From assembly GCA_028713575.1 (NCBI GenBank), contig JAQTOB010000010.1, positions 1 through 19,971 of the forward strand: a DNA stretch of 19,971 nt, in the 5' to 3' direction. The position numbers and the translations under genes are program-made. This document shows, in pieces, positions 2,087-19,726 of this stretch (position 1 is the stretch's first letter; each line of letters starts with the position of its first letter). Under the pieces are notes generated by a model that had not been told where the DNA came from, searched no databases, and saw only the letters and a list, made by a program, of their open reading frames with translations. The DNA is from Patescibacteria group bacterium. Lineage in GTDB: Bacteria > Patescibacteriota > Patescibacteriia > UBA2591 > UBA6264.

Positions 2087-3925
2087 ATGTGTGGAATAGC
2101 CGGAATTATTAATTTAGACCAAAAACCAGTTGATGAAAAAAAAGTAGAAAAGATGATAAAAATTATAAAGTATCGCGGTCCTGACGACGAGGGCTATTAT
2201 ATAAATGGAAGTGTTGGACTGGGTCACTGTCGCCTGTCTATTATTGATTTATCAAAAGCCGGGCACCAACCAATGACGAATGTAAGCAGGGACTTATGGA
2301 TGGTTTATAATGGAGAAATTTATAACTATCTTGAATTAAGAGAAAAACTAAAAAAAATCGGCTATCAATTTAAATCTAACACCGACACCGAAGTGATTAT
2401 TTACGCCTATAAAGAATGGGGAGAAAAATGTTTAGAAAAATTTAATGGGATGTGGGCGTTTGCTATTTGGGATGATAAAAAACAACGGCTTTTTTGCGCT
2501 CGAGATAGATTTGGCATTAAGCCATTTTACTACTACCTTGATGATAAAAAATTCATTTTTGCTTCGGAGATAAAGGCAATTTTAGAAAACAATGATATTA
2601 AACGACTGCCAAACGACCGGTTAATCTACGATTATCTGGTTTACGATCAAGAAGAACACACTGACAAAACATTTTTTAAAGGAATATTCAAATTACCTCC
2701 GGGCCGTTATCTGCTCATTAAAAACAAAAAACTAGAAATTAAAACCTGGTGGCAATTAAACCCTAAACCACTCAAACTCAAAAAAGAAACTGATTATCAG
2801 GAAAAATTTCATCGACTTTTAAATGATTCAATCAAACTTCGATTACGGAGTGACGTTCCAATTGGTACCTGTTTAAGTGGCGGATTGGATTCATCTTCGA
2901 TTGTCTGTATAGTTAATAAACTGATGAAACAGGATGGTGAAACTAACAAGAAAACTACTTTCACCTCCTGTTACAATAATCAGCCCGCCATAGACGAGAG
3001 GGAATATGTTGAAGAAATTGTTAAAAAAATTGGGGTGAAAAAAAATTATATTTTCCCAGCCATTGAGGATTTACAAAAAAACCTAAATCGTCTAGTCTGG
3101 CACCAAGAAGAACCTTTTAGTAGTTTAAGCATATATGCTCAATGGGCGGTAATGGAAAGGGGTAAAGAAAAAAAAGTTAAGGTTATTTTGGACGGACAAG
3201 GAGGAGACGAGGTGTTGCTGGGGTATGAAAGATATTATGTCTATTTTTTACTCAGATTGATTAAAGAATTTAGGTTTATCCGAATGATTAAGGAGGCTAA
3301 TCAAATAATAAAAAACTCTAAATTAAATTTCTTTCAATTTTTTAAATATTTCCTTTATTTTTCCGCGCCCAAAATTCGGTCTATTTACTTGAATAAAAGG
3401 GCTAAAAAAATACTGAATAAAAACTTTTTGAAAAGCAAAAAGGAAAAAACGTCTTCCATTCATTCAAAAAGGCCAACCGATCTCCAACTGTTGCAAAAAT
3501 TGGAAATAACGAGACTAAATTTGCCTAATTTGCTAAAATACGAGGACAAAAATTCATCGGCATTTTCTATAGAAGCTAGGACGCCTTTTCTCGACTATCG
3601 ATTAGTAGAATTTGCCTTTAATCTTCCCTATGATTTAAAAATCAAAAATGGTTGGTCAAAATATTTACTCAGGAAATCAATGAAAAATATTCTCCCCGAA
3701 AAAATCCGTTGGCGCAAAAATAAAATAGGGTTTGAGGTGCCTCAAAAAGCGTGGCTAACAACAATTAAGACTGAAATTAAAAAAATTTTTAGTCAAGAAA
3801 TTCACGCCTCAAAATACTTAAATCGTTATCAAATACTAAAATGCGTCGAAAATAATAATTTTGACGACAGAATATTATGGCGCGCCCTAAATCTAGAGTT
3901 ATGGATGCGAATTTTTAAATTATAG
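2087..3925 (+). CDS. Asparagine synthase (glutamine-hydrolysing) family amidotransferase, AsnB/WbpS-like
   Basis: N-terminal MCGIAG (Ntn Cys2 nucleophile), SGGLDSS PP-loop ATP-pyrophosphatase motif, 612 aa. The start lies 2 nt after the stop of the upstream gene. Confidence 0.9.
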   Translation: MCGIAGIINLDQKPVDEKKVEKMIKIIKYRGPDDEGYYINGSVGLGHCRLSIIDLSKAGHQPMTNVSRDLWMVYNGEIYNYLELREKLKKIGYQFKSNTDTEVIIYAYKEWGEKCLEKFNGMWAFAIWDDKKQRLFCARDRFGIKPFYYYLDDKKFIFASEIKAILENNDIKRLPNDRLIYDYLVYDQEEHTDKTFFKGIFKLPPGRYLLIKNKKLEIKTWWQLNPKPLKLKKETDYQEKFHRLLNDSIKLRLRSDVPIGTCLSGGLDSSSIVCIVNKLMKQDGETNKKTTFTSCYNNQPAIDEREYVEEIVKKIGVKKNYIFPAIEDLQKNLNRLVWHQEEPFSSLSIYAQWAVMERGKEKKVKVILDGQGGDEVLLGYERYYVYFLLRLIKEFRFIRMIKEANQIIKNSKLNFFQFFKYFLYFSAPKIRSIYLNKRAKKILNKNFLKSKKEKTSSIHSKRPTDLQLLQKLEITRLNLPNLLKYEDKNSSAFSIEARTPFLDYRLVEFAFNLPYDLKIKNGWSKYLLRKSMKNILPEKIRWRKNKIGFEVPQKAWLTTIKTEIKKIFSQEIHASKYLNRYQILKCVENNNFDDRILWRALNLELWMRIFKL

Positions 3926-5163: not shown

Positions 5164-5802
5164 ATGTTTAACAACTTTAAAAAAATTTTAATTTTAGCCC
5201 CACACACGGACGACGGGGAATTTGGTTGTGGAGGTACAATCGCTAAACTTATTAAGGGAGGTAAAAAAATTTATTATGTCGCCTTCTCAACCTGTGAGGC
5301 ATCGGTGCCAAAGGATTTTCCTAAAGATATTTTAAAAAAAGAGCTTAAACAAGCGACTAAAACACTTGGTATTAAGTCAAAAAATCTAACTATTTTAAAT
5401 TATCCCGTTAGACATTTCCCTCAAAATCGTCAAGCCATCTTAGAAGATATGATAAAACTTAAAAATAAAATTGTTCCTGATTTAATTTTCATGCCATCAC
5501 TACACGATATTCACCAAGATCATCTAACCATTGCTCAAGAAGGGCTCCGAGCATTTAAACAAAGCAGTATTTTGGGCTATGAAGACGTCTGGAATAATTT
5601 AACCTTTAATACCATCTGTTTTGTCCATTTAACGGAATTGATTATTAAGAAAAAAATTGAAGCTATAAAAAAGTATAAATCTCAGTCTAAAAAGCTTTAT
5701 GCCACCGCAAAATTTATTAGAAGTTTAGCCCATGTGAGGGGGATTCAAATAGGCACAGAATATGCAGAAGCCTTTGAAGTTATCCGTTGGATTATTAATT
5801 AA
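5164..5802 (+). CDS. PIG-L/LmbE family de-N-acetylase
   Basis: ILILAPHTDDGEFGCGGTIAKL (AHPDDE-type zinc motif) and the downstream HDIHQDH motif. 212 aa, typical size. Confidence 0.85.
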   Translation: MFNNFKKILILAPHTDDGEFGCGGTIAKLIKGGKKIYYVAFSTCEASVPKDFPKDILKKELKQATKTLGIKSKNLTILNYPVRHFPQNRQAILEDMIKLKNKIVPDLIFMPSLHDIHQDHLTIAQEGLRAFKQSSILGYEDVWNNLTFNTICFVHLTELIIKKKIEAIKKYKSQSKKLYATAKFIRSLAHVRGIQIGTEYAEAFEVIRWIIN

Positions 5803-5813
5803 AATATTAAAAT

Positions 5814-6875
5814 ATGCAAAAAATAAACATTCTTATCACCGGCACCGGGGCGCCAGGAGCGCCGAGTATAATACAAAGCCTAAGAGTAATTAACAGAAAA
5901 ATTAAAATTATCGGGGTAGATATGGATGAAAACTCTGTCGGTTTTTCAATGGTTGATAAATATTATTTAGTCAGACCGGCTGAAAACAAAAATTTCATCA
6001 AGGACATATTACAAATAGCAAAAAAGGAAAAAATAGATGTTATTATTCCTTTGGTTACAAAGGAATTGCTAAAATTTTCGGAAAACAAAAAACTTTTTGA
6101 AAAGGAAAACATCAAAGTATCTATTTCGGATCCTTTGGGATTAAAAATAGCTAATAATAAATATCTTTTAATGAAACATTGCCTAAAGGAGAATATTCCC
6201 GTTCCCGAGTTTAAATTAGTCAAAAATTATAATGAATTTAAAAGGGCTGTTTTTGATCTAGGATATCCTAAAAATAATGTGTGCTTTAAACCTCCAGTCT
6301 CAAATGGAATGAGGGGTTTTAGGATTCTAACCAAATCAATTAATAGGCTGGATATTTTACTCAATCAGAAACCCGATGACGTATTAACTTCATTGGAAGA
6401 AATTGCCCCCGTTCTTAAAGGTGCCAAATCCTTTCCTGACCTTTTGGTGATGGAATATCTCCCTGGACAAGAATACAGTGTTGACATTTTGGTTGACAAC
6501 GGGAGGTGTATTGTTGTTGTTCCCCGTTCTAGGGATAAACTAAAAATGGGAATTAGTTTTGTGGGAACAACGGTTAAGGATCAAGAAATTATAAAGTATT
6601 CAAAAAAAATAGTTGAAACACTAAAATTAAATGGAAATATCGGGCTACAATTTAAACGAGATAAAAAAGAAATTCCTAAAATTATAGAATCTAATCCCCG
6701 GGTTCAAGGAACGATGGTTTTAGCTACGGCGTCTAAGGCAAATTTAGTATATGGGGCCGTGCAACTATGTCTTGGAGAAAAAATTAAACCGTTTAAAATA
6801 GCCTGGGGGACAAAAATGATTCGCTATTGGAAAGAAGTATATTATGATAAGAGAGGACACTCATTTACACTCTAA
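5814..6875 (+). CDS. ATP-grasp superfamily ligase (carbamoyl-phosphate-synthase-L-like)
   Basis: N-terminal Rossmann-like ILITGTGAPGAPS. Central VCFKPPVSNGMRGFRIL and MEYLPGQEYSVDIL. C-terminal IESNPRVQGT (Mg-ATP site pattern). Confidence 0.75.
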   Translation: MQKINILITGTGAPGAPSIIQSLRVINRKIKIIGVDMDENSVGFSMVDKYYLVRPAENKNFIKDILQIAKKEKIDVIIPLVTKELLKFSENKKLFEKENIKVSISDPLGLKIANNKYLLMKHCLKENIPVPEFKLVKNYNEFKRAVFDLGYPKNNVCFKPPVSNGMRGFRILTKSINRLDILLNQKPDDVLTSLEEIAPVLKGAKSFPDLLVMEYLPGQEYSVDILVDNGRCIVVVPRSRDKLKMGISFVGTTVKDQEIIKYSKKIVETLKLNGNIGLQFKRDKKEIPKIIESNPRVQGTMVLATASKANLVYGAVQLCLGEKIKPFKIAWGTKMIRYWKEVYYDKRGHSFTL

Positions 6876-7488
6876 TTTTTCTGATGGGAAAAATAGTATT
6901 GAAGAAATGGCCCAAACTGCTATTAAATTAGGGTTAAAAAAAATAACATTTACCGACCATGTTTGGGAAACAAGCGACTGGATAGATGATTATGTGGAAG
7001 AAATTAAAGAAGTTCGGAAAAAATATCCAAAGATAAAAATATATTCTGGGATAGAGGCAAAAGTAATTGACTTAAGTGGGAATATTGACGCTAATAAATC
7101 TTTCTTTAATAAAGTTGATTATGTTTTGGGTGCTTTCCATAGAATACCAACAGGGAAAAGGACTTATCTCTCTAGTGAAGAAATTATTAAAAATAAAAAG
7201 ATAGCTCTTAATTTCTGGTATAAAGCAATAATAAACTTATTGAAAAATAAAAATGTAGATATTATTGCTCATCCTACATTTATTCTAAAAAGATATAAAA
7301 TAAAATTACCGAAATGGCTGAAAAAGGAAATTGCTGAAAATGCTCGAAAAACAAATAAAACATTTGAGATTAATAGAAAACACAAAGTCCCAAATAAAGA
7401 ACTTATAAAAATACTAAAAGAACATAATATAAAACTTATATACGGTAGCGATAGTCACAATATTAAAGAGCTTAAAATGTTTAATTAA
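6844..7488 (+). CDS. PHP-domain metal-dependent phosphoesterase (histidinol-phosphatase-like)
   Basis: MIREDTHLHSNFSDGK...ITFTDH...AHPT...GSDSH, the His/Asp ladder of PHP/HisK-type phosphatases. Overlaps the ATP-grasp gene by 32 nt. Confidence 0.75.
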   Translation: MIREDTHLHSNFSDGKNSIEEMAQTAIKLGLKKITFTDHVWETSDWIDDYVEEIKEVRKKYPKIKIYSGIEAKVIDLSGNIDANKSFFNKVDYVLGAFHRIPTGKRTYLSSEEIIKNKKIALNFWYKAIINLLKNKNVDIIAHPTFILKRYKIKLPKWLKKEIAENARKTNKTFEINRKHKVPNKELIKILKEHNIKLIYGSDSHNIKELKMFN

Positions 7489-8330: not shown

Positions 8331-9329
8331 ATGAATTTAAGAAATAAAAAAATTTTAATTGCTGGCGGAGCTGGATTTATTGGCTCACATTTGTGTGAAA
8401 AACTATTAAAAGAGAAGGGGGAAATTACTGTTTTTGATAACTTTAGTACTGGAAAATCATCAAACCTAGAATCAATTAAAAATAAAATTAAAATAATTAA
8501 AGGAGACATACAAAATGCCAAAGAAATAGATAAAGCATCTAAGGCTCAAGATATTATTATTCACGAAGCCTTTCCTTATGGTGCGGCCACAAGGAGTGTT
8601 GATAAACAATTTGTTGGAGACGGAACTATTGGCACGTTTAATGTACTTCGTTCGGCCTTAAAAAATAATATTAAAAAAGTGGTCTATGCCTCTACTGTCG
8701 CGGTTTACGGAATCAAAAAAAATTCTCCTCAAAAAGAAGAAATTGAAAAAAATCCATTTTTACCATATGGAGCCACTAAATATTTAGGAGAACTATACTG
8801 TTCTAGTTTTTCTAATGTATATGGATTAGAAACTGTTAGTCTAAGGTATTTCAACGTATTTGGCCCTCGATATGCCACTTTTGATCACAGCGCCATGATT
8901 CTCTTTCTAAAAAGGGCAATTCAAAACAAAGACTTAATTATTTACGGAGATGGACGGCAAATCCGTGACTATACCTACGTCGACGATATAGTGGAAGGAA
9001 CTATCCTGGCCGCTAAAAAAGAAAAAAATCATGGGACTGTTTATAATCTCGGTAAAGGACGTGGACTAAGTATTTTTGATCTGGCTAAAAAAATCGTTGA
9101 ATTAACCGGGTCTAAAAGTAAAATCCATTTTGGGAAAAAAAGCGAATATAAGATTCTCAAACGAGGCCTTCCTTATGGAGTTACCAAAAAAATAAACGGA
9201 AATTTTGTCGATGAAAGAAATTATGTAGCAAACATAAATAAAGCAAAAATAGAATTAGGATATCTGCCTAAAATATCCCTAGAACAAGGAATAATAAAAA
9301 CTTTTCAATGGATGAAAGAAAAAATTTAA
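8331..9329 (+). CDS. Extended-SDR NAD-dependent nucleotide-sugar epimerase/dehydratase/reductase
   Basis: ILIAGGAGFIGSHL, DNFSTGK, YGATKYLGE (YxxxK), RYFNVFGPR. Confidence 0.9.
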   Translation: MNLRNKKILIAGGAGFIGSHLCEKLLKEKGEITVFDNFSTGKSSNLESIKNKIKIIKGDIQNAKEIDKASKAQDIIIHEAFPYGAATRSVDKQFVGDGTIGTFNVLRSALKNNIKKVVYASTVAVYGIKKNSPQKEEIEKNPFLPYGATKYLGELYCSSFSNVYGLETVSLRYFNVFGPRYATFDHSAMILFLKRAIQNKDLIIYGDGRQIRDYTYVDDIVEGTILAAKKEKNHGTVYNLGKGRGLSIFDLAKKIVELTGSKSKIHFGKKSEYKILKRGLPYGVTKKINGNFVDERNYVANINKAKIELGYLPKISLEQGIIKTFQWMKEKI

Positions 9330-10348
9330 AAGATAGAATATCTCTTCCTTTGGTTTCAATAATAATAGCTTGTCGAAATGAAAAAGAAGTCATTGATAAA
9401 TGCCTTGATTCTCTAATTGGACAAACTTACCCCAGCCATAAAATAGAGATTCTTGTAGTTGATGGAATGAGCGAAGACAAAACTCGTGAAATTGTTAGGG
9501 GATACTCTAAAAAATATTCTTCTATTCATTTATTCGACAATATTAAAAGAAATACTCCGTGTGCTTTTAACATTGGTATCAAAGAATCAAAGGGTGAGGT
9601 TATCACAATAGCAAGCGGTCACGCGATTTATCAAAAAAATTATATATCCACATATGTAGAATCATTAAAAAAATATAATGCCGATTGTGTTGGCGGATTA
9701 CAAACAACCTCTACTTCAAAAAATTCTTATGTTGCCAAATCAATTGTTTTTTGTCTTTCTTCTTTATTCGGTGTTGGTAATGCTCTCTATAGGATAGCAA
9801 ATACCCATCAGCAACCAAAAATTGTTGATACCGTTCCTTTTGCCTGCTACAAAAGAAAAGTGTTTGAAAAAATTGGTTTATTTAATGAAAAATTAGTTCG
9901 TAGCCAAGATATGGAATTTAATATAAGATTAAAAAGAGCAGGGGGCAAAATTATCTTAATTCCTGAGATTATGGGCTGTTATTATCCCCAGAACACTAAC
10001 CTTAGAAAATTTTTCATATACCACCTAAAAGACGGATTTTGGTCTACTTATCCCCTAAAATTTGTTAAAACACCCTATAAATTAAGACATTATATTCCTT
10101 TGATTTTTTTAATGAGTCTATTTGGAATGGGGATATTGGGAACTTTTTCTTTATTTTTTTTCCGGTTGTTTCTATCTATATTCGGATTATACCTTTTAGC
10201 TAATCTTTATTTTTCTATAGAAACTGCCATAAAAGAAAAAAATTTTAAATATTTTTTTATTATGCCAATAGTATTTGGTATTCGTCATATTGGATATGGA
10301 TTGGGTTCAATTTGGGGTTTAATAAAAATACTAAAACCTGAGAAATAA
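9308..10348 (+). CDS. Family 2 glycosyltransferase with a C-terminal multi-helix membrane anchor
   Basis: VSIIIACRNE, VVDGMSEDKT (DxD-like), RSQDMEFNIRL. The C-terminal roughly 90 aa are strongly hydrophobic (3-4 helices). Overlaps the upstream gene by 22 nt. Confidence 0.85.
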   Translation: MDERKNLKDRISLPLVSIIIACRNEKEVIDKCLDSLIGQTYPSHKIEILVVDGMSEDKTREIVRGYSKKYSSIHLFDNIKRNTPCAFNIGIKESKGEVITIASGHAIYQKNYISTYVESLKKYNADCVGGLQTTSTSKNSYVAKSIVFCLSSLFGVGNALYRIANTHQQPKIVDTVPFACYKRKVFEKIGLFNEKLVRSQDMEFNIRLKRAGGKIILIPEIMGCYYPQNTNLRKFFIYHLKDGFWSTYPLKFVKTPYKLRHYIPLIFLMSLFGMGILGTFSLFFFRLFLSIFGLYLLANLYFSIETAIKEKNFKYFFIMPIVFGIRHIGYGLGSIWGLIKILKPEK

Positions 10349-10352
10349 CTCT

Positions 10353-10970
10353 ATGCTAAAAAGACTATTTGATATTATATTCTCTTTCTTGGGAATAATA
10401 TCAACCCTTCCTTTATTAATACTAATTACTATAACAATAAGAATAGATTCAAAAGGACCAATTTTTTATAAAGGAATACGAATGGGCAGATTTAATAAAT
10501 CCTTCAAAATTCTCAAATTCAGAACTATGTTTGTTAATTCTGAAATAAATGGTCCGCCCATAACCATTAAAAACGACACAAGAATTACAAAGGTGGGAAG
10601 ATTTCTAAGAAAATATAAGTTAGACGAATTACCACAGTTTATAAATGTATTAAAAGGAGAAATGAGTTTAGTCGGGCCAAGGCCCGAAATTCCCCTTTAT
10701 TTCAAATATTATACTGAAGAAGAAGAAAAAATAATCTTATCTGTCCGTCCCGGGATAACGGATTATGGCTCAATTGAATTTCATGATGAAAGTAAACTTC
10801 TTGCCGGAAGTAAAAATCCTGTTGAAGACTATGTAAAAAAAATAAAAGATAAAAAAGTAAAACTTCAATTGCAATATATTAAAAATCAATGTTTATGGCT
10901 TGACGTTAAAATTATTCTCAAAACCATAAAAACTATAATCTATACGAGATTGTATAAAAAAAACATATGA
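10353..10970 (+). CDS. Small monotopic phosphoglycosyltransferase (bacterial sugar transferase, PglC/WbaP-C-terminal-like), initiating enzyme
   Basis: LKRLFDIIFS + re-entrant helix, KGPIFYKGIRMG, KFRTM, DELPQFINVLKGEMSLVGPRP. Confidence 0.9.
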   Translation: MLKRLFDIIFSFLGIISTLPLLILITITIRIDSKGPIFYKGIRMGRFNKSFKILKFRTMFVNSEINGPPITIKNDTRITKVGRFLRKYKLDELPQFINVLKGEMSLVGPRPEIPLYFKYYTEEEEKIILSVRPGITDYGSIEFHDESKLLAGSKNPVEDYVKKIKDKKVKLQLQYIKNQCLWLDVKIILKTIKTIIYTRLYKKNI

Positions 10971-12208
10971 AAAAGACCCTGAATCTCACTTGGAATACTT
11001 TAAATAATCTAGAAAATATTTATGGAGAGTCTTTTTATTTATTAGATTCGGAAAAATTCAAAAAAAATTACAATGAATTTCTTAAATCATTCCGAAAGAT
11101 TTATCCTAATTCTTTTATAGCATATTCATATAAAACAAATTATATTCCTAAACTCTGCAAATTAGTTAATCAAATGGGAGGATATGCAGAAGTGGTTTCT
11201 GAAATGGAATTCAATTTAGCTATTAAAATCGGAGTCACTCCTAAAAAAATCATTTATAACGGTCCGTATAAAAGCGAAAATTCCATTAAAAAATGTTTAT
11301 TAAACGGCGGCATGGTTAATTTAGATTCTCTCTCTGAGGTAGATATAATTGAAAAAATTGCCCATAAATACCCTAAAATAAATATGTCTGTGGGATTAAG
11401 ATGTAATTTTGACATCGGAACTCCTCTAATATCAAGATTTGGACTTGATATAAATGAATTTTCTGAAGCTTTTAAAAGGATAAACAAAATTAGGAATATT
11501 AATGTTAAGGGAATTCATTGTCATTTCCCGAACAGATCTCTGGAAACATTCATCTCTCGAATTGATAAAATGCTATATTTATCCAAAAAATTCTTTAAAA
11601 ATTCTCCCGAATTTATTGATATCGGCGGAGGATATTTCGGAAAAATGGATTTAGTTCTAAAAAAACAATTTAACTGTGAAATACCAAGTTATCAAGAATA
11701 CGCAGATATTATTGCTACAAAAATAGAAAATGCTTATAAAAATATAAATAATTCAAAAAAGCCTAAACTTTTCCTTGAACCCGGAACAGCTCTTGTGGCA
11801 GATACAATGAAATTTGTAGTAAAGGTTATTAGTACTAAAAATGTGCGCAATAAATGTATTGCAATTGTTTCGGGAAGTAAATTTAATATTTCACCAACAT
11901 CAGATACTATAAATTTACCCATTAAAGTGTATCGTCAATGTAGAAAAAATATTGCCAATAAACAGAAAACTATTGATATAGCTGGCTATACCTGCATTGA
12001 GAACGATTATTTATACAAAAAATATAAAGGAAACTTAGAAATAGGTGATTACATTGTGTTTAACAATGTAGGGTCATATTCATTAGTTATGAAACCACCA
12101 TTTATTTTGCCAAATTGTGCAGCCATTGAACATTCTCCTAAAAAGGGATATAATATTATTAAAAGACAAGAAAATTTGAAAGATATTTTTAATACTTTTC
12201 GCTTTTAA
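10967..12208 (+). CDS. PLP-dependent decarboxylase, fold type III (Orn/Lys/Arg/DAP decarboxylase family)
   Basis: AYSYKTN (PLP-Lys), EVVSEMEFNLAIKIGV..IIYNGPYKS, GIHCHF, IDIGGGYFG, EPGTALVAD, GYTCIENDYL. ATGA start/stop overlap with the upstream gene. Confidence 0.8.
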   Translation: MKKTLNLTWNTLNNLENIYGESFYLLDSEKFKKNYNEFLKSFRKIYPNSFIAYSYKTNYIPKLCKLVNQMGGYAEVVSEMEFNLAIKIGVTPKKIIYNGPYKSENSIKKCLLNGGMVNLDSLSEVDIIEKIAHKYPKINMSVGLRCNFDIGTPLISRFGLDINEFSEAFKRINKIRNINVKGIHCHFPNRSLETFISRIDKMLYLSKKFFKNSPEFIDIGGGYFGKMDLVLKKQFNCEIPSYQEYADIIATKIENAYKNINNSKKPKLFLEPGTALVADTMKFVVKVISTKNVRNKCIAIVSGSKFNISPTSDTINLPIKVYRQCRKNIANKQKTIDIAGYTCIENDYLYKKYKGNLEIGDYIVFNNVGSYSLVMKPPFILPNCAAIEHSPKKGYNIIKRQENLKDIFNTFRF

Positions 12209-12251
12209 ATCTACTACTATTTTTTAAAATTATTACTTTTAAAATAAATTT

Positions 12252-13178
12252 ATGAAATCTTTAGGTTCTAAAAAAAATAATCTTGTTTGGTTGGCTGGTA
12301 AAATTATATCTAGTCAAGAAGCTAAAATATCTATTTTATCCCCCACATGTCAATATGGTCTCAATGTCTTTGAAGTAATTAGGTGTTATTTAGATAAAAA
12401 AAATGATCAACTCTTAGCTTTTAGGCTAAGGGACCACCTTCTACGACTTTTCCGTTCTGCAAAAATAATGAGAATCAAACCTAAATATACAATAAATGAA
12501 ATACAAAGTATATTTATTAAAACAGTAGCTGCAAATAAATATAAGGAGGATATCACTGTCCGTATAGTCCTCTTTATAAATGAGTCTGGAAGCTGGAATT
12601 CTGAATATAAGGGTGAATTATTAATATCTCCTATTTCTCGAGGAAGGACCCACGGTTTTAAGACTGGAATTAGTTGTTGTATCAGTTCATGGGAACGTAT
12701 AAATGATAAATGCCTCCCCCCTCGAATAAAAACAGGAGCCAATTACATTAATGGGCGAATGGCTCAACTTGAAGCAATAAACAATAAGTATGATTCGGCC
12801 CTCTTTCTTAATAACAAGGGTAATCTCTCTGAAGCCCCGGGTTCTTGTATTTTTATTGTAAAGGAGAATAAATTAATAACTCCGCCCATTACTGCATCAA
12901 TCTTGGAAAGCGTTACAAGGGACAGTATCATAAAAATATCCCAAGAAGAACTGGGAATTTCTATTGTGGAAAGAGACATAGACAGAACTGAGCTATATCC
13001 CTGTGACGAGGTGTTTTTATGTGGAACAACGATGGAAATCGTTCCAGTGATATCTGTTGATAGAATAAGAATCGGAAATGGCAAAATCGGACCAATAACT
13101 AAGACTATAAGACAAAAATACTTCAACGTCATAAAGGGAAAAATTAATAAGTATAAAGGGTGGGTTACCGCTTTTTAA
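12252..13178 (+). CDS. PLP-dependent aminotransferase, fold type IV (branched-chain / D-amino-acid aminotransferase family)
   Basis: GLNVFEVIRCY, RIKTGANYINGRMAQLEA (catalytic Lys context), EAPGSCIFIVKENKLITPP, ILESVTRDSII, 308 aa. Confidence 0.8.
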   Translation: MKSLGSKKNNLVWLAGKIISSQEAKISILSPTCQYGLNVFEVIRCYLDKKNDQLLAFRLRDHLLRLFRSAKIMRIKPKYTINEIQSIFIKTVAANKYKEDITVRIVLFINESGSWNSEYKGELLISPISRGRTHGFKTGISCCISSWERINDKCLPPRIKTGANYINGRMAQLEAINNKYDSALFLNNKGNLSEAPGSCIFIVKENKLITPPITASILESVTRDSIIKISQEELGISIVERDIDRTELYPCDEVFLCGTTMEIVPVISVDRIRIGNGKIGPITKTIRQKYFNVIKGKINKYKGWVTAF

Positions 13179-13200
13179 TATAAAAATAACATAGATTGAA

Positions 13201-14013
13201 ATGGAATTTATATTTATCACAAATAATCCTGAAATGGCGGCATACGCTCAAAAAATAGGGGTTGAAAGAATTATGGTTGATTTGGAATATATAGGGAAAA
13301 AAAAACGCCAAGGACATTTGGATACCTTAATATCTAACCATTCTATAAATGATATTAAAAAAGTAAAAAAAATCATTAATCATTCAAAACTTTTAGTTAG
13401 GGTAAATCCAATATATGAAAGATCTAAAGAAGAGATTGATAAAGCCATTTCTAATGGCGCGGAAATCATTATGCTTCCAATGTTCAAAACGGTTTCGGAG
13501 GTTGAAAAATTTATATCAATAATCAATGGGAGGGTCAAAAATATTCTCCTGCTTGAAACGTCACAAGCCCTAGTGAGAATAAATGAAATATTAAAAATAA
13601 AAGGAATTAACGAAACCTATATAGGACTTAATGACCTTCACTTATCAATGGGATTAAATTTTATGTTTGAATTATTAAGTGGAGGCATTATCGAATATTT
13701 AGCCAATATTTTTAAAAAACATCAAATGAAGTGGGGATTTGGCGGTATAGCAAAAATTGGACAAGGAGACCTCCCTGCTGAATATATTTTAGCAGAACAC
13801 GTAAGGCTAAATTCTCAAATGGTTATATTGTCTCGCACTCTACACGAAAAGAGTCAAACAATCCAAGAATTAAAAAGAACTAATTTTATGAAAGAGATCC
13901 AAAAACTGAGGAGAAAGGAAAAAGAAATTAAAAATTGGCCGGCGGAAAAATTCATTAAAAATAAATCTATTATGGAAGAAAAAGTGAAGCGGATAGTTAA
14001 AAAATTACAATGA
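13201..14013 (+). CDS. HpcH/HpaI aldolase / citrate-lyase-beta-like TIM-barrel protein with a Lys-rich helical C-terminal tail
   Basis: VRVNP...AISNGAEIIMLPMFKTVSEVEKF...ILLLETSQALVRINEIL...YIGLNDLHLSMGL follows the family pattern (R..n, PmV.s.eE, iET, iG..DLs). The last roughly 60 aa (KEIQKLRRKEKEIKNW..KVKRIVKKLQ) are an extra charged helix. Confidence 0.55.
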   Translation: MEFIFITNNPEMAAYAQKIGVERIMVDLEYIGKKKRQGHLDTLISNHSINDIKKVKKIINHSKLLVRVNPIYERSKEEIDKAISNGAEIIMLPMFKTVSEVEKFISIINGRVKNILLLETSQALVRINEILKIKGINETYIGLNDLHLSMGLNFMFELLSGGIIEYLANIFKKHQMKWGFGGIAKIGQGDLPAEYILAEHVRLNSQMVILSRTLHEKSQTIQELKRTNFMKEIQKLRRKEKEIKNWPAEKFIKNKSIMEEKVKRIVKKLQ

Positions 14014-14026
14014 TTAACGCTTAAAA

Positions 14027-14509
14027 ATGTCATTAAAAATAAAATCTAAAATTCATCACAAAAAAATTCCCCGGCAGGGATTTTCTGTCCAGTCACTAAA
14101 ACAAGCCAATCCAAAAAACTCGCGAGGAAGACGAACGTGGGAATATAAAATGGCCAAAGGGCAACAATTGTCGTTTTATCAACGATTGAAAGGGGAAAAA
14201 TTCGGAAATCACTTCCATAAAGGCGAAGACCCTTCAAAAAATCCGGAAATAATTATTTTTACTTCCGGCATTGTTCAGATAAAATTTACTTATTTGTCAG
14301 GCAAAGAAAAAAATGTCATTATTGATGCTACTAAAGCGCCACAAAAACTTCTCCTCTTTCCATATGTTTTACATGCTAACGAGGCAAAAACAGATTGCAC
14401 TTATGTCGAGTATAGACAGACTTGGTTTGATAAAAAAAGGCCTGACACTTTCTCTGAGAAAGAATTCCTGAAAATGCAATCGCAAAAAAACAGGCCGCGT
14501 AATCAATAG
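14027..14509 (+). CDS. Small cupin-fold protein (WbuC/FdtA/CapF-C-terminal-like sugar-modifying cupin)
   Basis: GNHFHKGEDPSKNPEIIIFTSGIVQIKF resembles the cupin G-x-H-x-H...E...G motif. 160 aa. Its GC is intermediate between the island and the backbone. Confidence 0.45.
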   Translation: MSLKIKSKIHHKKIPRQGFSVQSLKQANPKNSRGRRTWEYKMAKGQQLSFYQRLKGEKFGNHFHKGEDPSKNPEIIIFTSGIVQIKFTYLSGKEKNVIIDATKAPQKLLLFPYVLHANEAKTDCTYVEYRQTWFDKKRPDTFSEKEFLKMQSQKNRPRNQ

Positions 14510-14595
14510 TTCAAATATAATTAAAACGAGGACTGTCCCCGAAAAGATTCATTTTCTTAGCCGCATCAATACTGGATTGTAACCCGATTTTTGAA

Positions 14596-14625
14596 AAATA
14601 GTCGATATTCGACTATTTAATTTTT
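14596..14625 (+). terminator. Hairpin plus T-run, candidate intrinsic terminator of the 14-gene operon
   Basis: AAATAGTCGA-TAT-TCGACTATTT (perfect 10-bp stem, 3-nt loop) followed by AATTTTT. Lies 87 nt after the cupin stop. The stem is AT-rich, so strength is uncertain. Confidence 0.4.
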
Positions 14626-14687
14626 AGAGGCTCAGTCTCCAAAATCGGACCTACAAAGTATTTAAAAATTAAAGGGGGTTAAAAACC

Positions 14688-14718
14688 TTGGTGGCCGAGC
14701 CACCAAAAGCCACCAAAA
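14688..14718. repeat. GC-rich hairpin overlapping a tandem 10-mer
   Basis: TTGGTGGC-CGA-GCCACCAA (8-bp stem, 14688-14706). GCCACCAAAA is repeated in tandem at 14699-14708 and 14709-14718. Confidence 0.6.
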
Positions 14719-14748
14719 CCAAAACGAAGTAAAAATCAAAATAGACAT

Positions 14749-14771
14749 ATGTAGGGGTTCAACCCCTCCAG
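14749..14771. repeat. Solo copy of a dispersed repeat (ATGTAGGGGTTCAACCCCT[C/G]CAG)
   Basis: 22/23 identity with 19794-19816 in the same orientation. It contains the internal mini-palindrome AGGGGTT-C-AACCCCT. Confidence 0.7.
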
Positions 14772-14865
14772 AACACCAATATATATCCCCTCTTTGCTTG
14801 AAAATAACTGAAAGGAAAAGGGCTAGAAAAAGGAGGTGCGAAATAGAAATAAGGAAAGTTTAGAT

Positions 14866-14900
14866 AAAAAAGTTTGGGAACTAAGTTCCCAAACTTTTTT
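14866..14900. terminator. Strong bidirectional rho-independent terminator
   Basis: AAAAAAGTTTGGGAAC-TAA-GTTCCCAAACTTTTTT: perfect 16-bp arms (GC core GTTTGGGAAC), 3-nt loop, A6 upstream and T6 downstream. Confidence 0.8.
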
Positions 14901-14902
14901 AA

Positions 14903-14943
14903 TTGACATAAATTTCAATGGATATATACTGAATATATCCATT
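14903..14943 (+). promoter_or_regulatory. Sigma-70-like promoter with an overlapping 11-5-11 perfect inverted repeat (operator-like), upstream of the capD/pglF-like gene
   Basis: TTGACA (14903-14908), 16-nt spacer, TATACT (14925-14930). AATGGATATAT-ACTGA-ATATATCCATT spans 14917-14943 and covers the -10 element. Confidence 0.5.
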
Positions 14944-15038
14944 TCATTTATTTTACATTATGGTAAAAAAACTGAAATAAGTCTATGAATTTAAAAAATA
15001 AAAAATATTGAGATTCCCTAAGACGGGAAAATATCAAT

Positions 15039-16958
15039 ATGAACCTATTTAAAAAGACCAATTTAAAAAGAGTTTTGCTGTTTTTGCTTGGCGACGTTAT
15101 TTTGGTTTCCCTGTCCTGTGTCCTGGGATTTTTATTGCGTTTTGACGGCCAAATCCCCTCTCATTACTGGCCCATGATTAAGGGATTTATTATTATTGCC
15201 ATTCCTTCAACCGTTTTCTTTTTCTTTCTGGAACGCCTTTATTCTATCTCATGGACCTATATCAGCGTCCGCGAACTCTTAAGAGTGACGCGAGGAGTGA
15301 TTGCCGCTTTCTTGGGCGTTGGCGCCGTCTTGTTTTTAGTCCGCCATTTTCCAGTTTTTGAAGGATTCCCCCGCTCCATTATCTTCATTTCCGGATTTTT
15401 AAGTCTTCTTTTGGTGGGCGGATTCCGTTTTTCCAAAAGAATCTATTTGCACGGCTTTAAGATTGGCTTTAACCATAATAACAAAACCGCCGGTCGCCCA
15501 GTTTTAATTATCGGCGCCGGGGAAGCCGGGGAACAATTAGCCAGGCATATTTTGGGGTCAAAAGAAGCCATTTATTCCCCTCTCGGATTTGTTGACGATG
15601 ACCCCTCAAAACAAAATGTAATGATTCATGGCATTAGGGTTTTGGGGAAAAACAGCGATTTGCCGGAAATCCTTGAAAAAAATAAAGTGGAAGAAATCTT
15701 TATTGCCATGCCTTCGGCCAGTCAAAAAACCATTAAACAAACCGTTTCTTTAGCCCGAATCGCCGGAGTGGGAAAAATAAAAATTTTACCCAGCACTAAA
15801 GAAATCTTGGCAGAAAAAATCAGTTTGAGCCACTTGCGGGAAATATCCATTGAAGACCTTCTAGGACGCAACCCGATAAAAATAGACACTCAATCAATTA
15901 AAAACTACATTGCCGGTAAAACCATTTTGGTAACCGGAGCCAGCGGTTCAATCGGTTCTGACCTTTGCCAACAGATATTGAAATTCCAGCCCCGCCATTT
16001 AATCGCCCTTGACCAAAGCGAAACCGGCACTTTTTATCTGAAAAATGATTTAAACAAATTGTTTCCAGAAATAAAAAAGACGTTTATCATTGCTGACATT
16101 TGCGACCAAAATAAGATTGATAAAATTTTTGAAAATTTCAAACCGCAAGTTATTTTTCACGCCGCGGCTTATAAACATGTTCCCTTGATGGAAGAAAATC
16201 CGGACGAAGCGATAAAAAACAATGTCTTTGGCACTTTAAATCTTGGGCAAAACGCTTTAAAACACCAAGTGGAAAAATTCGTGATGATTTCCACGGACAA
16301 AGCAATTAACCCCACTTCCATTATGGGCGCCAGCAAAAGGGTCTGCGAGATGATTATGGTTTGGTTAAATAAATCTTCTAAGGCGGTCGCGCCTGATAAT
16401 TCTGGCAAGGATGGTCCCGTGACAGGAACAACGCGTTTCTGCGCAGTCAGGTTTGGCAATGTTCTCGGCAGCCAAGGCAGTGTGGTACCGGTTTTTAAAA
16501 AACAAATTGAAAAAGGCGGACCAGTAGAAGTAACCGACCCAGAAATGAAAAGATATTTTATGATTACCGCTGAGGCCTGTTTACTGGTGATGCAGGCCGG
16601 AGCCATTGGCCAGGGCGGCGAGGTTTTTGTCCTGGATATGGGTAAGCCGATTAAAATCGTGGATTTAGCCAAAGAAATGATCCGTTTAGCCGGCTATCGC
16701 CCGGACGTGGACATTCCTATTGTCTTCACTGGCTTGCGGCCTGGAGAAAAACTATTTGAGGAAATCTTGACTAAAAACGAGATTCCTACTAAAAACGAGA
16801 AAATATTCATTGCTAAAATGGCTGAGATAGATGAACAAAAGCTGACAGACGGACTAAATCAATTTCAGAGAGGATTAAAAGAAGGCAATAAAGACATTTT
16901 AATCAAAGTCCTGAATAATTTGGTGCCAAAATACCAGAATCATCAAAATATATCTTAA
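15039..16958 (+). CDS. Membrane-anchored nucleotide-sugar 4,6-dehydratase, CapD/PglF/WbpM family
   Basis: About 4 N-terminal TM helices. Two Rossmann regions (LIIGAGEAG; LVTGASGSIGSDL). FHAAAYKHVPLME, STDKAINPTSIMGASKRVCE, VRFGNVLGSQGSVVPVFKKQIEKGGPVEVTDPEMKRYFM. Confidence 0.9.
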   Translation: MNLFKKTNLKRVLLFLLGDVILVSLSCVLGFLLRFDGQIPSHYWPMIKGFIIIAIPSTVFFFFLERLYSISWTYISVRELLRVTRGVIAAFLGVGAVLFLVRHFPVFEGFPRSIIFISGFLSLLLVGGFRFSKRIYLHGFKIGFNHNNKTAGRPVLIIGAGEAGEQLARHILGSKEAIYSPLGFVDDDPSKQNVMIHGIRVLGKNSDLPEILEKNKVEEIFIAMPSASQKTIKQTVSLARIAGVGKIKILPSTKEILAEKISLSHLREISIEDLLGRNPIKIDTQSIKNYIAGKTILVTGASGSIGSDLCQQILKFQPRHLIALDQSETGTFYLKNDLNKLFPEIKKTFIIADICDQNKIDKIFENFKPQVIFHAAAYKHVPLMEENPDEAIKNNVFGTLNLGQNALKHQVEKFVMISTDKAINPTSIMGASKRVCEMIMVWLNKSSKAVAPDNSGKDGPVTGTTRFCAVRFGNVLGSQGSVVPVFKKQIEKGGPVEVTDPEMKRYFMITAEACLLVMQAGAIGQGGEVFVLDMGKPIKIVDLAKEMIRLAGYRPDVDIPIVFTGLRPGEKLFEEILTKNEIPTKNEKIFIAKMAEIDEQKLTDGLNQFQRGLKEGNKDILIKVLNNLVPKYQNHQNIS

Positions 16959-16990
16959 AATTTCTAATTGACTTAATTTCTAATTGACCT
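16959..16990. repeat. 16-bp tandem direct repeat x2 immediately after the capD-like stop codon
   Basis: AATTTCTAATTGACTT (16959-16974) and AATTTCTAATTGACCT (16975-16990), 15/16 identical. The TAATTGAC word also forms the -35 region at 14900-14907. Confidence 0.8.
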
Positions 16991-17245
16991 AATAAAATCC
17001 CAATAATCAATAGCTGAATGACCAAGAATTCTTAGACATTGGGATTTGGGAATTGGGCATTTATTAAAATAATTAGGTTAATTAGAATAATTTAGTCATT
17101 GATGGGGACGCACCCATCACTAACTAAAAAGGGTTAAAATCACACCAAATTGAAATTTTCGCTCTATAATCCTCTATTGATGCGGGCTTTAGAAGAGATG
17201 TTTATGGGGTCAGACCCCAGGTCCCAGACTCCGGGATAAAATATG

Positions 17246-18395: not shown

Positions 18396-18440
18396 CACTG
18401 CCCCTATTGGCATCTTTGATGCTAATAAGGGCAGTTTTTT
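18396..18440 (+). terminator. Rho-independent terminator downstream of the Wzz-like gene
   Basis: CACTGCCCCTATTGGCATC-TTT-GATGCTAATAAGGGCAGT (18 positions, 1 mismatch, 1 G-T wobble) followed by a T6 run (18435-18440; its first T is also the last stem base). Confidence 0.75.
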
Positions 18441-18451
18441 ATTCTAGATTT

Positions 18452-19006
18452 ATGAAAATTTTTAGAAAACAAAAAGTCTGTATCTATATTGATGGGAATA
18501 ATTTCTATAAGTATCTGAAAAACAAAGAAATTGATTTCCCAAAAGGAACAAAGTTTGATTTTAAAAAATTCTCCGAATATTTAACGGGCGAAAGAGAATG
18601 TATTTCTAAAAGATATTATATCGGCATCGTAAGAAATTTCGACCATAGTAAAAGAAGCCAAGAATTGGTAATGGGACAACAAAAATTCATCTCTAAAATA
18701 AAAAATGACGGATTTATAGTAAAACCCGGACGGATAATATATGATCAAGGAAAAATAAGAGAAAAAGGTACTGATGTAAAAATCGCCGTCGATTTAATTA
18801 CAGGTGCAATTGATGACTATTACGATACCGCCATTCTAGTAAGTTCTGACACTGATTTGATTCCCGCAATAAAATACGTAAAATTCAAAAATAAAAGGAT
18901 CGAATATATCGGCTTTTCCCACCGACCATCACTGGGTATACAAAAGTATGCCACTTTGTCAAAATTACTTTCTTCGGATGATCTGGAAAAATTTAAGGGT
19001 ATATAA
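18452..19006 (+). CDS. NYN-domain (LabA/DUF88-like, PIN-related) predicted ribonuclease
   Basis: KVCIYIDGNNFY, KGTDVKIAVDLI, AILVSSDTDLIPAI (acidic catalytic residues of NYN). Start moved to ATG 18452 because the track's TTG start at 18407 lies inside the upstream terminator hairpin. Confidence 0.8.
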   Translation: MKIFRKQKVCIYIDGNNFYKYLKNKEIDFPKGTKFDFKKFSEYLTGERECISKRYYIGIVRNFDHSKRSQELVMGQQKFISKIKNDGFIVKPGRIIYDQGKIREKGTDVKIAVDLITGAIDDYYDTAILVSSDTDLIPAIKYVKFKNKRIEYIGFSHRPSLGIQKYATLSKLLSSDDLEKFKGI

Positions 19007-19032
19007 AAATATTTATTAAAGATGAAAAATAT

Positions 19033-19374
19033 ATGAAGATCATCAAGGATAATATTTCCATCAAAGAACTGGAGGAAATGGCGCATAACCTGTTTGATAA
19101 TCTGGTAAAAATCGTGGTGGATATAGAAAAAGGAATTATGGCGGTTGATGCCGGACTTCATTCCGATGAAGAAGAAACGCTCTTACAAAACGGCTCCAAA
19201 CAGCAAGATTTATGGGGCATCAACATCTATCCGGAAAAACAGGACGATTCCTGGATTGAATTTGACTCCATGATAAATTTGCGGCCGATGCAAGGAAACC
19301 GCAGTCGCGGGATAGAAAATCCGGAAATTAAAGAAAAAATAAGAAAAATCATTAATAAATTAATCCTTCGCTAA
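19033..19374 (+). CDS. Small conserved hypothetical protein (113 aa)
   Basis: Backbone-like GC and no internal stops. The motif string VVDIEKGIMAVDAGLHSDEEETLLQNGSKQQDLWGINIYP...NLRPMQGNRSRGIENPEI looks like a family I recall seeing as a DUF in uncultured bacteria (possibly DUF5674). This is unverified. Confidence 0.55.
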   Translation: MKIIKDNISIKELEEMAHNLFDNLVKIVVDIEKGIMAVDAGLHSDEEETLLQNGSKQQDLWGINIYPEKQDDSWIEFDSMINLRPMQGNRSRGIENPEIKEKIRKIINKLILR

Positions 19375-19381
19375 AATTAAA

Positions 19382-19726
19382 ATGGAAAATAAACCGACAT
19401 ACCAACATCAGGATTTAGCCGACGGCCGCTGGTTTGAATTGAATTTCATGGAGCAGATGGCCAACGTCGGCAGCGAAGTGGGACGAACAATGTCATGGAA
19501 GGAAAAAGGAGATAATGAATACAGTCAGAAAGCTTTTGCCCGGGCCCTGGAACTACTTGATCTAACCATTGAAGACCGAAAAAACAGATCAAAATTAAAG
19601 GAAATCGTCAGATTGCGCGAAGTTTTAGTTGATTACTTCTTTGGCGAAAATCAATACGGATCATCCAACCGGCTTTGGCATAATTACTTCTACGCCTTCA
19701 ACTTTGCCGCCAGAAGAAACCGCTAA
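19382..19726 (+). CDS. Small helical hypothetical protein (114 aa)
   Basis: Starts 7 nt after the upstream stop. About 50% GC in a hand-counted line. Predicted mostly helical (ARALELLDLTIEDRKNRSKLKEIVRLREVLVDYF). No family recognised. Confidence 0.5.
   Translation: MENKPTYQHQDLADGRWFELNFMEQMANVGSEVGRTMSWKEKGDNEYSQKAFARALELLDLTIEDRKNRSKLKEIVRLREVLVDYFFGENQYGSSNRLWHNYFYAFNFAARRNR

Follow-up and report, generated by a model that had tools for sequence, protein, structure and literature searches.

A conserved cassette of decarboxylase, aminotransferase and HpcH/HpaI-like genes in a Patescibacteria glycan locus, and its possible role in making a C-branched amino sugar

The DNA analysed here (the window; 19,971 nucleotides of contig JAQTOB010000010.1, from a Patescibacteria metagenome-assembled genome) holds a glycan locus with all of its genes on one strand. 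In it, a fold-III decarboxylase dependent on pyridoxal phosphate (PLP), a fold-IV aminotransferase and an HpcH/HpaI-like TIM barrel protein follow a small phosphoglycosyltransferase. These three enzymes form a conserved cassette which accompanies phosphoglycosyltransferase and 4,6-dehydratase genes. Our preferred reading, in which our confidence is evenly balanced and of which we infer every chemical step, is that the trio tailors the first glycan sugar while it is linked to a nucleotide or to undecaprenyl, yielding a 4-C-(2-aminoethyl) sugar and not free metabolites. The genes on which the argument draws are the following.

9308-10348, + strand: GT2 glycosyltransferase (Glycos_transf_2, 83.5 bits), directly upstream of the phosphoglycosyltransferase
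10353-10970, + strand: small monotopic phosphoglycosyltransferase, PglC-like (Pfam Bac_transf, 207 bits)
10967-12208, + strand: fold-III PLP decarboxylase (Orn_Arg_deC_N PF02784, 97 bits; Orn_DAP_Arg_deC PF00278, 34 bits)
12252-13178, + strand: fold-IV aminotransferase, similar to branched-chain aminotransferases (Aminotran_4, 159.5 bits)
13201-14013, + strand: HpcH/HpaI-like TIM barrel of distant class II (metal-dependent) pyruvate aldolase type (PF03328, 42.6 bits; cut-off 25)
14027-14509, + strand: cupin, putatively of the CapF C-terminal type, assigned by family profile (PF14667, 21.4 bits, below the cut-off of 28.7)
15039-16958, + strand: PglF/WbpM-type membrane-anchored UDP-GlcNAc 4,6-dehydratase (Polysacc_synt_2, 379 bits, with CoA_binding_3; PseB-like, 187 bits)

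An original prediction, made from the letters of the sequence, had described four co-directional genes, from the decarboxylase to the cupin, and this layout was reproduced by the open reading frame (ORF) calls: all four lie on the + strand, the decarboxylase start overlaps the stop of the Bac_transf phosphoglycosyltransferase as ATGA, and the gaps between the four genes are 43, 22 and 13 nt. The family names given to the first three were likewise correct, with Orn_Arg_deC_N, Orn_DAP_Arg_deC, Aminotran_4 and HpcH_HpaI all above threshold in the profile search. The four-gene set was found again on independent assemblies (L001-L003).

Gene neighbourhoods were counted around the decarboxylase in 31 metagenome loci that had 3 kb or more of flanking sequence on either side, out of 80 loci fetched, taking as partners the genes within 4 kb on the same strand. 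The aminotransferase and the HpcH-like gene were both present in 28 of the 31 loci, and a phosphoglycosyltransferase in 23. The synteny with glycan genes that had been expected in relatives is therefore real for the trio and for the phosphoglycosyltransferase; it does not extend to the cupin, nor to ATP-grasp or PHP genes of the type found upstream in the window, each of which was seen near the decarboxylase in 0/31 loci. The trio occurs in Patescibacteria, Bacteroidota (Bacteroidales), Firmicutes (Ornithinibacillus), Acidobacteria (Acidobacteriaceae), M. maripaludis and an archaeal metagenome-assembled genome; its cultured carriers include Ornithinibacillus halotolerans (L010) and the M. maripaludis strain of GCA_014207325.1 (L009). 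Natural fusions join the phosphoglycosyltransferase to the decarboxylase (P0123, P0125, L111) and the decarboxylase to the aminotransferase (proteins of about 718 aa, e.g. L011). In the nearest relative of the window (L176) the phosphoglycosyltransferase, decarboxylase, aminotransferase and HpcH-like protein are about 80% identical to those of the window and the gene order is GT4 (glycosyltransferase family 4), methyltransferase, GT2, phosphoglycosyltransferase, decarboxylase, aminotransferase, HpcH; the GT2 occupies the same position with 47.6% identity, and there is no cupin.

The dehydratase also recurs, a PglF-like gene lying near the decarboxylase in 9/31 loci. Contiguous blocks of PglF, HpcH-like, decarboxylase, phosphoglycosyltransferase and aminotransferase genes are present in L127, L152 and L167, and the commonest immediate neighbour of the PglF-like genes is an HpcH-like gene (9), followed by a phosphoglycosyltransferase (6). 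Archaeal-type loci have neither PglF nor the phosphoglycosyltransferase, and in these a LegB/RmlB-like soluble 4,6-dehydratase adjoins the trio instead. When the 294 unannotated ORFs around 68 trio loci were clustered without labels, GT2 was the sole recurrent family (23/68), and no recurrent ligase or nucleotidyltransferase emerged. The arrangement resembles the Campylobacter PglF-PglE-PglD-PglC set, where a PglF-like dehydratase and a PglC-like phosphoglycosyltransferase also bracket the tailoring enzymes, the difference being that here the HpcH-like protein, the fold-IV aminotransferase and the fold-III decarboxylase stand where Campylobacter has PglE, a fold-I aminotransferase, and PglD, an acetyltransferase.

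The window decarboxylase has the N-terminal PLP barrel, the C-terminal beta-sheet domain, the PLP lysine and the catalytic cysteine of the Orn/DAP/Arg decarboxylases. The PLP lysine K56, H184/H186, G220-G221 and C343 are invariant in 25 relatives, and G222 is nearly so. With 159.2 bits against the lysA model TIGR01048 (cut-off 297.9) it falls outside the LysA equivalog, and it reached 153 bits against the NCBIfam model for FslC (cut-off 500). Relatives with 50-79% identity are spread across Patescibacteria, Bacteroidota, Firmicutes and Methanococcus maripaludis; several of them are named diaminopimelate decarboxylase in their source annotations. Judged by its sequence, this is a distinct and highly conserved glycan-locus family, other than LysA. 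The solved structure closest to the family profile is the N-citrylornithine decarboxylase FslC (170.8 bits), followed by diaminopimelate decarboxylase (DAPDC) and BtrK, and the substrates of all three are amino acids with a large polar distal group. FslC (N-citrylornithine) and BtrK (gamma-Glu-acyl carrier protein) share the fold of the window enzyme, and in each case the alpha-amino acid undergoing decarboxylation is attached to a large distal group. The window enzyme differs from them in its genomic context and in scoring far below the family cut-offs, and the consensus of its family, EPGT, has Thr where the ELGR/EPGR of FslC/DAPDC has Arg. Subtypes of the decarboxylase that lack the aminotransferase and aldolase partners were also observed (L134 5538-7989, L135 5020-7471, L125, L131 and L132); one of these adjoins a NeuB-like synthase, and another a weakly ATP-grasp-like gene together with a DegT aminotransferase.

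The aminotransferase passes the NCBIfam cut-offs for IlvE (NF005146, 298.3 against 279; TIGR01122, 277.1 against 245.6). With this hidden Markov model (HMM) assignment to the L-specific IlvE type, a D-amino acid product, originally suggested as a possibility, is not supported. The substrate pocket was analysed in 61 cassette-type homologues aligned with E. coli IlvE, the side-chain pocket of which we take, from the literature on branched-chain aminotransferases (BCATs), to be formed by Y95, W126, Y129 and the V109* loop. The equivalents of K159, Y164, E193, R59 and R97, which serve PLP and the alpha-carboxylate, are kept in 60-61 of the 61 sequences. Around the side chain, by contrast, the pocket is not that of IlvE: none of the 61 has Tyr at the position of Y95, Lys or Arg replaces W126 in 53, Thr or Ala mostly replaces Y129, and the M107-V109 loop is deleted in every one. 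The hydrophobic side-chain pocket of BCATs is thus missing from the cassette enzyme, which has small residues and Lys/Arg in its place. Comparison of active sites, proposed at the outset as a guide to substrate and stereochemistry, has in this way set the decarboxylase family apart from DAPDC at the Arg of EPGR and the aminotransferase apart from IlvE in its pocket.

The HpcH-like protein belongs to the HpcH/HpaI class II aldolase/citrate lyase beta superfamily. Its own family is large, with more than 7700 homologues found at a mean column identity of 63%, and the homologues that we examined all lie in glycan loci. The AlphaFold2 (AF2) model has a predicted local distance difference test score (pLDDT) of 94. 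The top Foldseek matches to this model are the HpcH/HpaI/YfaU aldolases (TM about 0.6, 14-16% identity, probability 1.0), with citrate-lyase beta and then the pyruvate kinase barrel next. E119 and D145, both invariant, align with the YfaU metal ligands E153 and D179; R67 is also invariant and, from its position after strand 3, is the putative equivalent of the pyruvate-binding Arg. The protein scores 20 bits against the HpaI model TIGR02311 (cut-off 368.8) and 18 bits against the RhmA model NF007521 (cut-off 441), and so is neither equivalog. With the class II aldolases HpaI/HpcH and YfaU (RhmA) it has in common the TIM barrel, the Glu/Asp ligands and the conserved Arg after strand 3. It is unlike them in the low identity, in an extra C-terminal helical tail, in its glycan-locus context and in the proposed acceptor, which would be the ketone of a nucleotide sugar.

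A second set of neighbourhoods was anchored on the HpcH-like gene itself and comprised the best 80 of at least 591 loci in species genomes, with partners counted within 3 kb on the same strand. A phosphoglycosyltransferase was the most frequent of the partners counted (52/80), and a D-2-hydroxyacid dehydrogenase was found in 37/80; DegT (14/80), a PglD-like acetyltransferase (13/80), AsnB (7/80), the fold-IV aminotransferase (5/80) and the decarboxylase (4/80) occurred less often. Loci of the AsnB type come mainly from gammaproteobacteria, and NeuA or NeuB is encoded as well in four of eight. Cultured carriers of the dehydrogenase type include Enterococcus eurekensis CCUG 61259 and Salimicrobium halophilum DSM 4771. 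The HpcH-like domain is in addition fused to other domains, as phosphoglycosyltransferase-HpcH, phosphoglycosyltransferase-GT4-HpcH (about 880 aa), GT4-HpcH and HpcH-DegT proteins. Multi-domain HpcH proteins are encoded at L021 2485-5151, L036 8183-10828, L027 8693-10816, L056 9392-10825 (the phosphoglycosyltransferase-HpcH fusion) and L023 3493-5487.

Three side observations belong to these loci. L069 encodes a GT4 joined to a 2-hydroxyacid dehydrogenase domain. In several Firmicutes loci (L006 10895-12493; L019, L022, L035, L065) the HpcH-like and 2-hydroxyacid dehydrogenase genes are followed by a gene for a protein of about 530 aa, whose sole family match is a faint one to Asn_synthase (E = 4e-4). 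The window too has an AsnB copy (2087-3925), 7 kb upstream in the same operon, while elsewhere AsnB lies directly beside the HpcH-like and phosphoglycosyltransferase genes (e.g. L053 11363-13144).

The partners of the HpcH-like protein, namely the 2-hydroxyacid dehydrogenase, AsnB, the aminotransferase and the aminotransferase with the decarboxylase, each act on an alpha-keto acid or on its carboxylate, and because the alternative partners all do so, the product of the HpcH-like enzyme is expected to be a keto acid. As the decarboxylase and the HpcH-like domain are fused to the membrane phosphoglycosyltransferase and to GT4, this keto acid would sit on a glycan intermediate. The acceptor of the pyruvate unit would then be the 4-keto-6-deoxy sugar made by the dehydratase, since these loci provide no other carbonyl acceptor. 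Further points in favour of this reading are the contiguous gene blocks, the failure of any ligase, nucleotidyltransferase or ThDP (thiamine diphosphate) enzyme that could attach a free amine to recur near the trio, the invariant metal ligands and Arg of the HpcH-like protein, the altered pocket of the aminotransferase, the substrates of the nearest solved decarboxylases, and the homology of the cupin to a CapF domain that handles a UDP-4-keto-6-deoxy-HexNAc.

On this basis, the following route can be drawn for the window. The PglF-like dehydratase (15039-16958) would convert UDP-GlcNAc to UDP-2-acetamido-2,6-dideoxy-hexos-4-ulose, an intermediate that the CapF-type cupin may epimerise, a step peculiar to this window. 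The HpcH-like aldolase would attack the C4 ketone with the pyruvate enolate, giving a 4-C-(CH2-CO-COOH) branch, which is the carbon skeleton of shewanellose. The BCAT-like aminotransferase would turn the 2-oxo acid of the side chain into an alpha-amino acid, and removal of the carboxylate by the fold-III decarboxylase would leave a 4-C-(2-aminoethyl) sugar. The phosphoglycosyltransferase (10353-10970) would pass the sugar phosphate to the lipid carrier for extension by GT2 (9308-10348), which probably adds the second sugar. The chemical order of keto acid, amino acid and amine that had been read from the four genes is hence plausible, being consistent with the decarboxylase-aminotransferase fusions and with the partners of the HpcH-like protein; the free small-molecule amine at its end is unsupported.

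Shewanellose, from the O-antigen of Shewanella putrefaciens A6, is 2-acetamido-2,6-dideoxy-4-C-(3'-carboxamide-2',2'-dihydroxypropyl)-D-galactose, and the same O-antigen contains an 8-epi-legionaminic acid (PMC4052302). Its skeleton is that of a pyruvate aldol product at C4 of a PglF-type 4-keto-6-deoxy-HexNAc, and the AsnB-type HpcH loci with nonulosonic-acid genes match the composition of this O-antigen, shewanellose plus 8-epi-legionaminic acid. The sugar retains a hydrated keto group and an amide, whereas the window cassette would transaminate and decarboxylate. Branching at C4 of NDP-4-keto sugars is otherwise achieved by thiamine diphosphate (ThDP)-dependent enzymes (YerE, ErwE, MMAR_2332), to which the aldolases ErwI and MMAR_2331 supply the donor (PMC9306805). 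These systems resemble our proposal in placing a pyruvate-derived carbon on C4 of a 4-keto-6-deoxy nucleotide sugar and in the participation of an aldolase/citrate-lyase family protein (MMAR_2331). They differ from it in that here it would be the aldolase that links the new carbon to the sugar, with its carboxylate retained for later processing. A ThDP-type scheme was excluded for the loci studied, as a query with E. coli IlvI matched neither the window nor any of about 170 related loci.

Several points weigh against the formation of a 4-C-(2-aminoethyl) sugar by the trio. A PglF-like dehydratase is near the decarboxylase in only 9/31 loci, and PglF accompanies the HpcH-like gene in 16/80 loci within 3 kb and 20/80 within 10 kb. 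The aminotransferase, for all its altered pocket, is still classed as IlvE by HMM score. The usual acceptors of class II pyruvate aldolases are aldehydes, not ketones, and we know of no assay on any member of the family, nor of any 4-C-(2-aminoethyl) sugar. The HpcH-DegT fusions and the nearby PglD-like acetyltransferases could mean that C4 is aminated beforehand, in competition with an aldol reaction at this carbon. The suggested link to shewanellose is one of composition and chemical logic only. Finally, free keto acids are known products of aldolases of the HpcH family within glycan clusters, as with MMAR_2331 and the BphI-like ErwI (PMC9306805).

This last point touches on the reading closest to the original prediction, in which pyruvate and a small aldehyde are joined to a keto acid that is converted to a free amine or amino alcohol; the ATP-grasp enzyme then amidates a uronic acid with it and the PHP protein removes a phosphate, as in the system of Cj1436/Cj1437/Cj1438C/Cj1435. 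The genes concerned lie in the upstream part of the locus, whose remaining genes are as follows.

First gene of the glycan locus, + strand: Wzy-like gene
2087-3925, + strand: AsnB-type glutamine amidotransferase
Between AsnB and PIG-L, + strand: GT4
5164-5802, + strand: PIG-L deacetylase
5814-6875, + strand: PylC-like ATP-grasp protein (PylC_N/ATPgrasp_Ter)
6844-7488, + strand: PHP phosphoesterase (phosphatase-like)
Between PHP and GT2, + strand: FkbM, then a short-chain dehydrogenase/reductase (SDR)
Downstream of the PglF-type dehydratase, + strand: Wzz gene

The PIG-L, ATP-grasp and PHP genes are a tight block (5164-7488) in which the latter two overlap by 32 nt. That these two belong to the same operon as the cassette favours a free amine, as does the precedent of C. 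jejuni, where an ATP-grasp amidoligase is paired with a phosphatase (PMC12409886). Also in its favour are the HpcH-family and BphI-like aldolases, whose products in clusters for branched sugars are free gamma-hydroxy keto acids (PMC9306805), and a Lachnospiraceae locus (L020, 2430-5499) in which genes for PIG-L, for a fold-III decarboxylase of more distant kinship (333 bits) and for an ATP-grasp homologue (230 bits) adjoin one another. The arrangement in the latter locus recalls the logic of BtrJ/BtrK, ligation followed by decarboxylation. The C. jejuni HS:2 glucuronamide system (PMC12409886) resembles the window in having a PLP-made amine within a glycan locus, an ATP-grasp gene and a phosphatase-like gene. 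The folds in the window are unrelated to those of that system, however, and the cassette is not co-conserved with either of these genes: both are missing from all 31 decarboxylase-anchored loci, and among the HpcH-anchored loci only 1/80 has an ATP-grasp gene of this type or a PHP gene. In L176, which keeps GT4, GT2, the phosphoglycosyltransferase and the trio, a single methyltransferase stands in place of the whole PIG-L/ATP-grasp/PHP/FkbM/SDR block, which is therefore a variable insert in the window. Moreover, no UDP-sugar 6-dehydrogenase that could provide the uronic acid was found in the window, and enzymes handling free metabolites would not be expected to be fused, as the decarboxylase and the aldolase are, to phosphoglycosyltransferase and GT4 domains. 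We consequently regard the supply of a free amine to the ATP-grasp enzyme at 5814-6875, and with it the proposed likeness to Cj1436/Cj1437, as unlikely. If the amine is borne on the sugar, as we prefer, the window ATP-grasp enzyme could decorate it.

A different course of events, also improbable in our estimate, starts with amination at C4, by a DegT enzyme encoded elsewhere or by the fold-IV aminotransferase. A pyruvate-derived unit, attached by the HpcH-like protein to this nitrogen or elsewhere, would next be trimmed by the decarboxylase, leading to an N-substituted sugar of the bacillosamine type and not to a C-branched one. The HpcH-DegT fusions, and the DegT and PglD-like genes in 14 and 13 of the 80 HpcH-anchored loci, would be in keeping with this. 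So would the substrates of the PglC-type phosphoglycosyltransferases, which in the Pgl pathway classically are 2,4-diamino-2,4,6-trideoxy sugars. Yet fold-III PLP decarboxylases depend on a free alpha-amino acid, and an N-linked pyruvate adduct has none; the aminotransferase, for its part, retains R97, the residue with which BCATs bind the alpha-carboxylate. The loci carrying the complete trio are without DegT and PglD, and a free alpha-keto acid side chain is the simpler explanation of the AsnB and 2-hydroxyacid dehydrogenase partners.

We consider it very improbable that the HpcH-like barrel uses phosphoenolpyruvate (PEP) in the manner of a mutase or transferase, making phosphonopyruvate or a similar keto acid which the partners, as 'pull' enzymes, would convert to a hydroxy acid or to a 2-aminoethyl compound, in the way of phosphonate pathways. 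The barrel does belong to a PEP/pyruvate-binding superfamily, pyruvate kinase barrels come close to the aldolases in score, and one HpcH-like homologue has a match to PEP-utilizers_C; the partner set (2-hydroxyacid dehydrogenase or aminotransferase) also resembles, as far as we are aware, the enzymes coupled to PEP mutase. Against this, neither PEP mutase nor isocitrate lyase was among the 50 Foldseek matches listed, no nucleotidyltransferase or phosphotransferase recurs near the trio by which a phosphonate could be attached, and the AsnB partner and the fusions to phosphoglycosyltransferase and GT4 would go unexplained. We know of no C-P bond-forming enzyme outside the PepM family.

The alternative named with the original prediction as one that would refute it, namely that the decarboxylase and the aminotransferase are housekeeping LysA and IlvE enzymes merely adjoining a glycan locus, was rejected, and its probability is negligible: although the aminotransferase passes the IlvE equivalog cut-offs, the decarboxylase reaches half the LysA cut-off, synteny of the two genes with the HpcH-like gene is kept in 28/31 loci from several phyla and a phosphoglycosyltransferase is near in 23/31, both decarboxylase-aminotransferase and phosphoglycosyltransferase-decarboxylase fusions exist, and the BCAT pocket is not conserved.

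The fourth gene of the set is accessory and stands outside the conserved cassette. Its cupin label is valid only at the level of profiles, at which the family matches residues 247-357 of Cap5F (E = 2e-8), but no Pfam cupin model is above threshold for the window protein itself; PF14667 matches 27 of 38 relatives. The family is small (220 representatives) and conserves an H-x-H...E...H metal motif. Its AF2 model, computed from four sequences, had a pLDDT of 42, too poor for use, and sequence profiles were used instead. The cupin domain of CapF is a Zn-dependent epimerase of the 4-keto product of CapE (PMC5393024), and by analogy the window cupin is possibly an epimerase of the 4-keto sugar.

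Between the cupin and the dehydratase lies a gap of 529 nt, which contains a near-consensus promoter-like site, TTGACA-16-TATACT (14903-14930), and hairpins. The G+C content is 0.26-0.34 across the glycan genes and climbs to 0.40-0.42 at the PglF-like gene (region 14510-17000). The dehydratase may thus be transcribed separately, as a better conserved unit beside a variable cassette of low G+C. Beyond Wzz, an NYN-domain protein, a DUF5674 protein and an ORF of 114 aa are encoded at 18407-19726.

A broader proposal, which we make with slightly less than even confidence, concerns the whole HpcH-like family, which extends over gut Clostridia, Bacilli, Bacteroidota, gammaproteobacteria, bacteria of the candidate phyla radiation (CPR) and methanogens. 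The HpcH-like proteins would be a large and hitherto unrecognised family of pyruvate aldolases that introduce C-branches into nucleotide sugars, and the resulting sugar-borne keto acid would be reduced, amidated (as in shewanellose), transaminated, or transaminated and decarboxylated according to the partner enzymes. With the version in the window, the sugar at the reducing end of a Patescibacteria surface glycan would be a 4-C-(2-aminoethyl)-6-deoxy-HexNAc, which has not been described before. Neither this cassette nor the biosynthesis of shewanellose was described in the literature searched. The enzymes come from known superfamilies and C-branched sugars are a known class; the action of an aldolase on a nucleotide sugar and the amine product would be new.

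For annotation, the consequence is that the names IlvE and diaminopimelate decarboxylase are misleading for the cassette enzymes, notably in CPR genomes, whose metabolic reconstructions draw on such names; automatic pipelines will label the aminotransferase as a branched-chain aminotransferase despite its non-BCAT pocket. If the proposal is true, it describes a new route to C-branched sugars, in which an aldolase working directly on the nucleotide sugar takes the place of a ThDP enzyme, and gives the first genetic explanation of shewanellose. It would also predict undescribed surface sugars bearing acidic, amide, amino-acid and amine groups in many gut and environmental bacteria and in some archaea.

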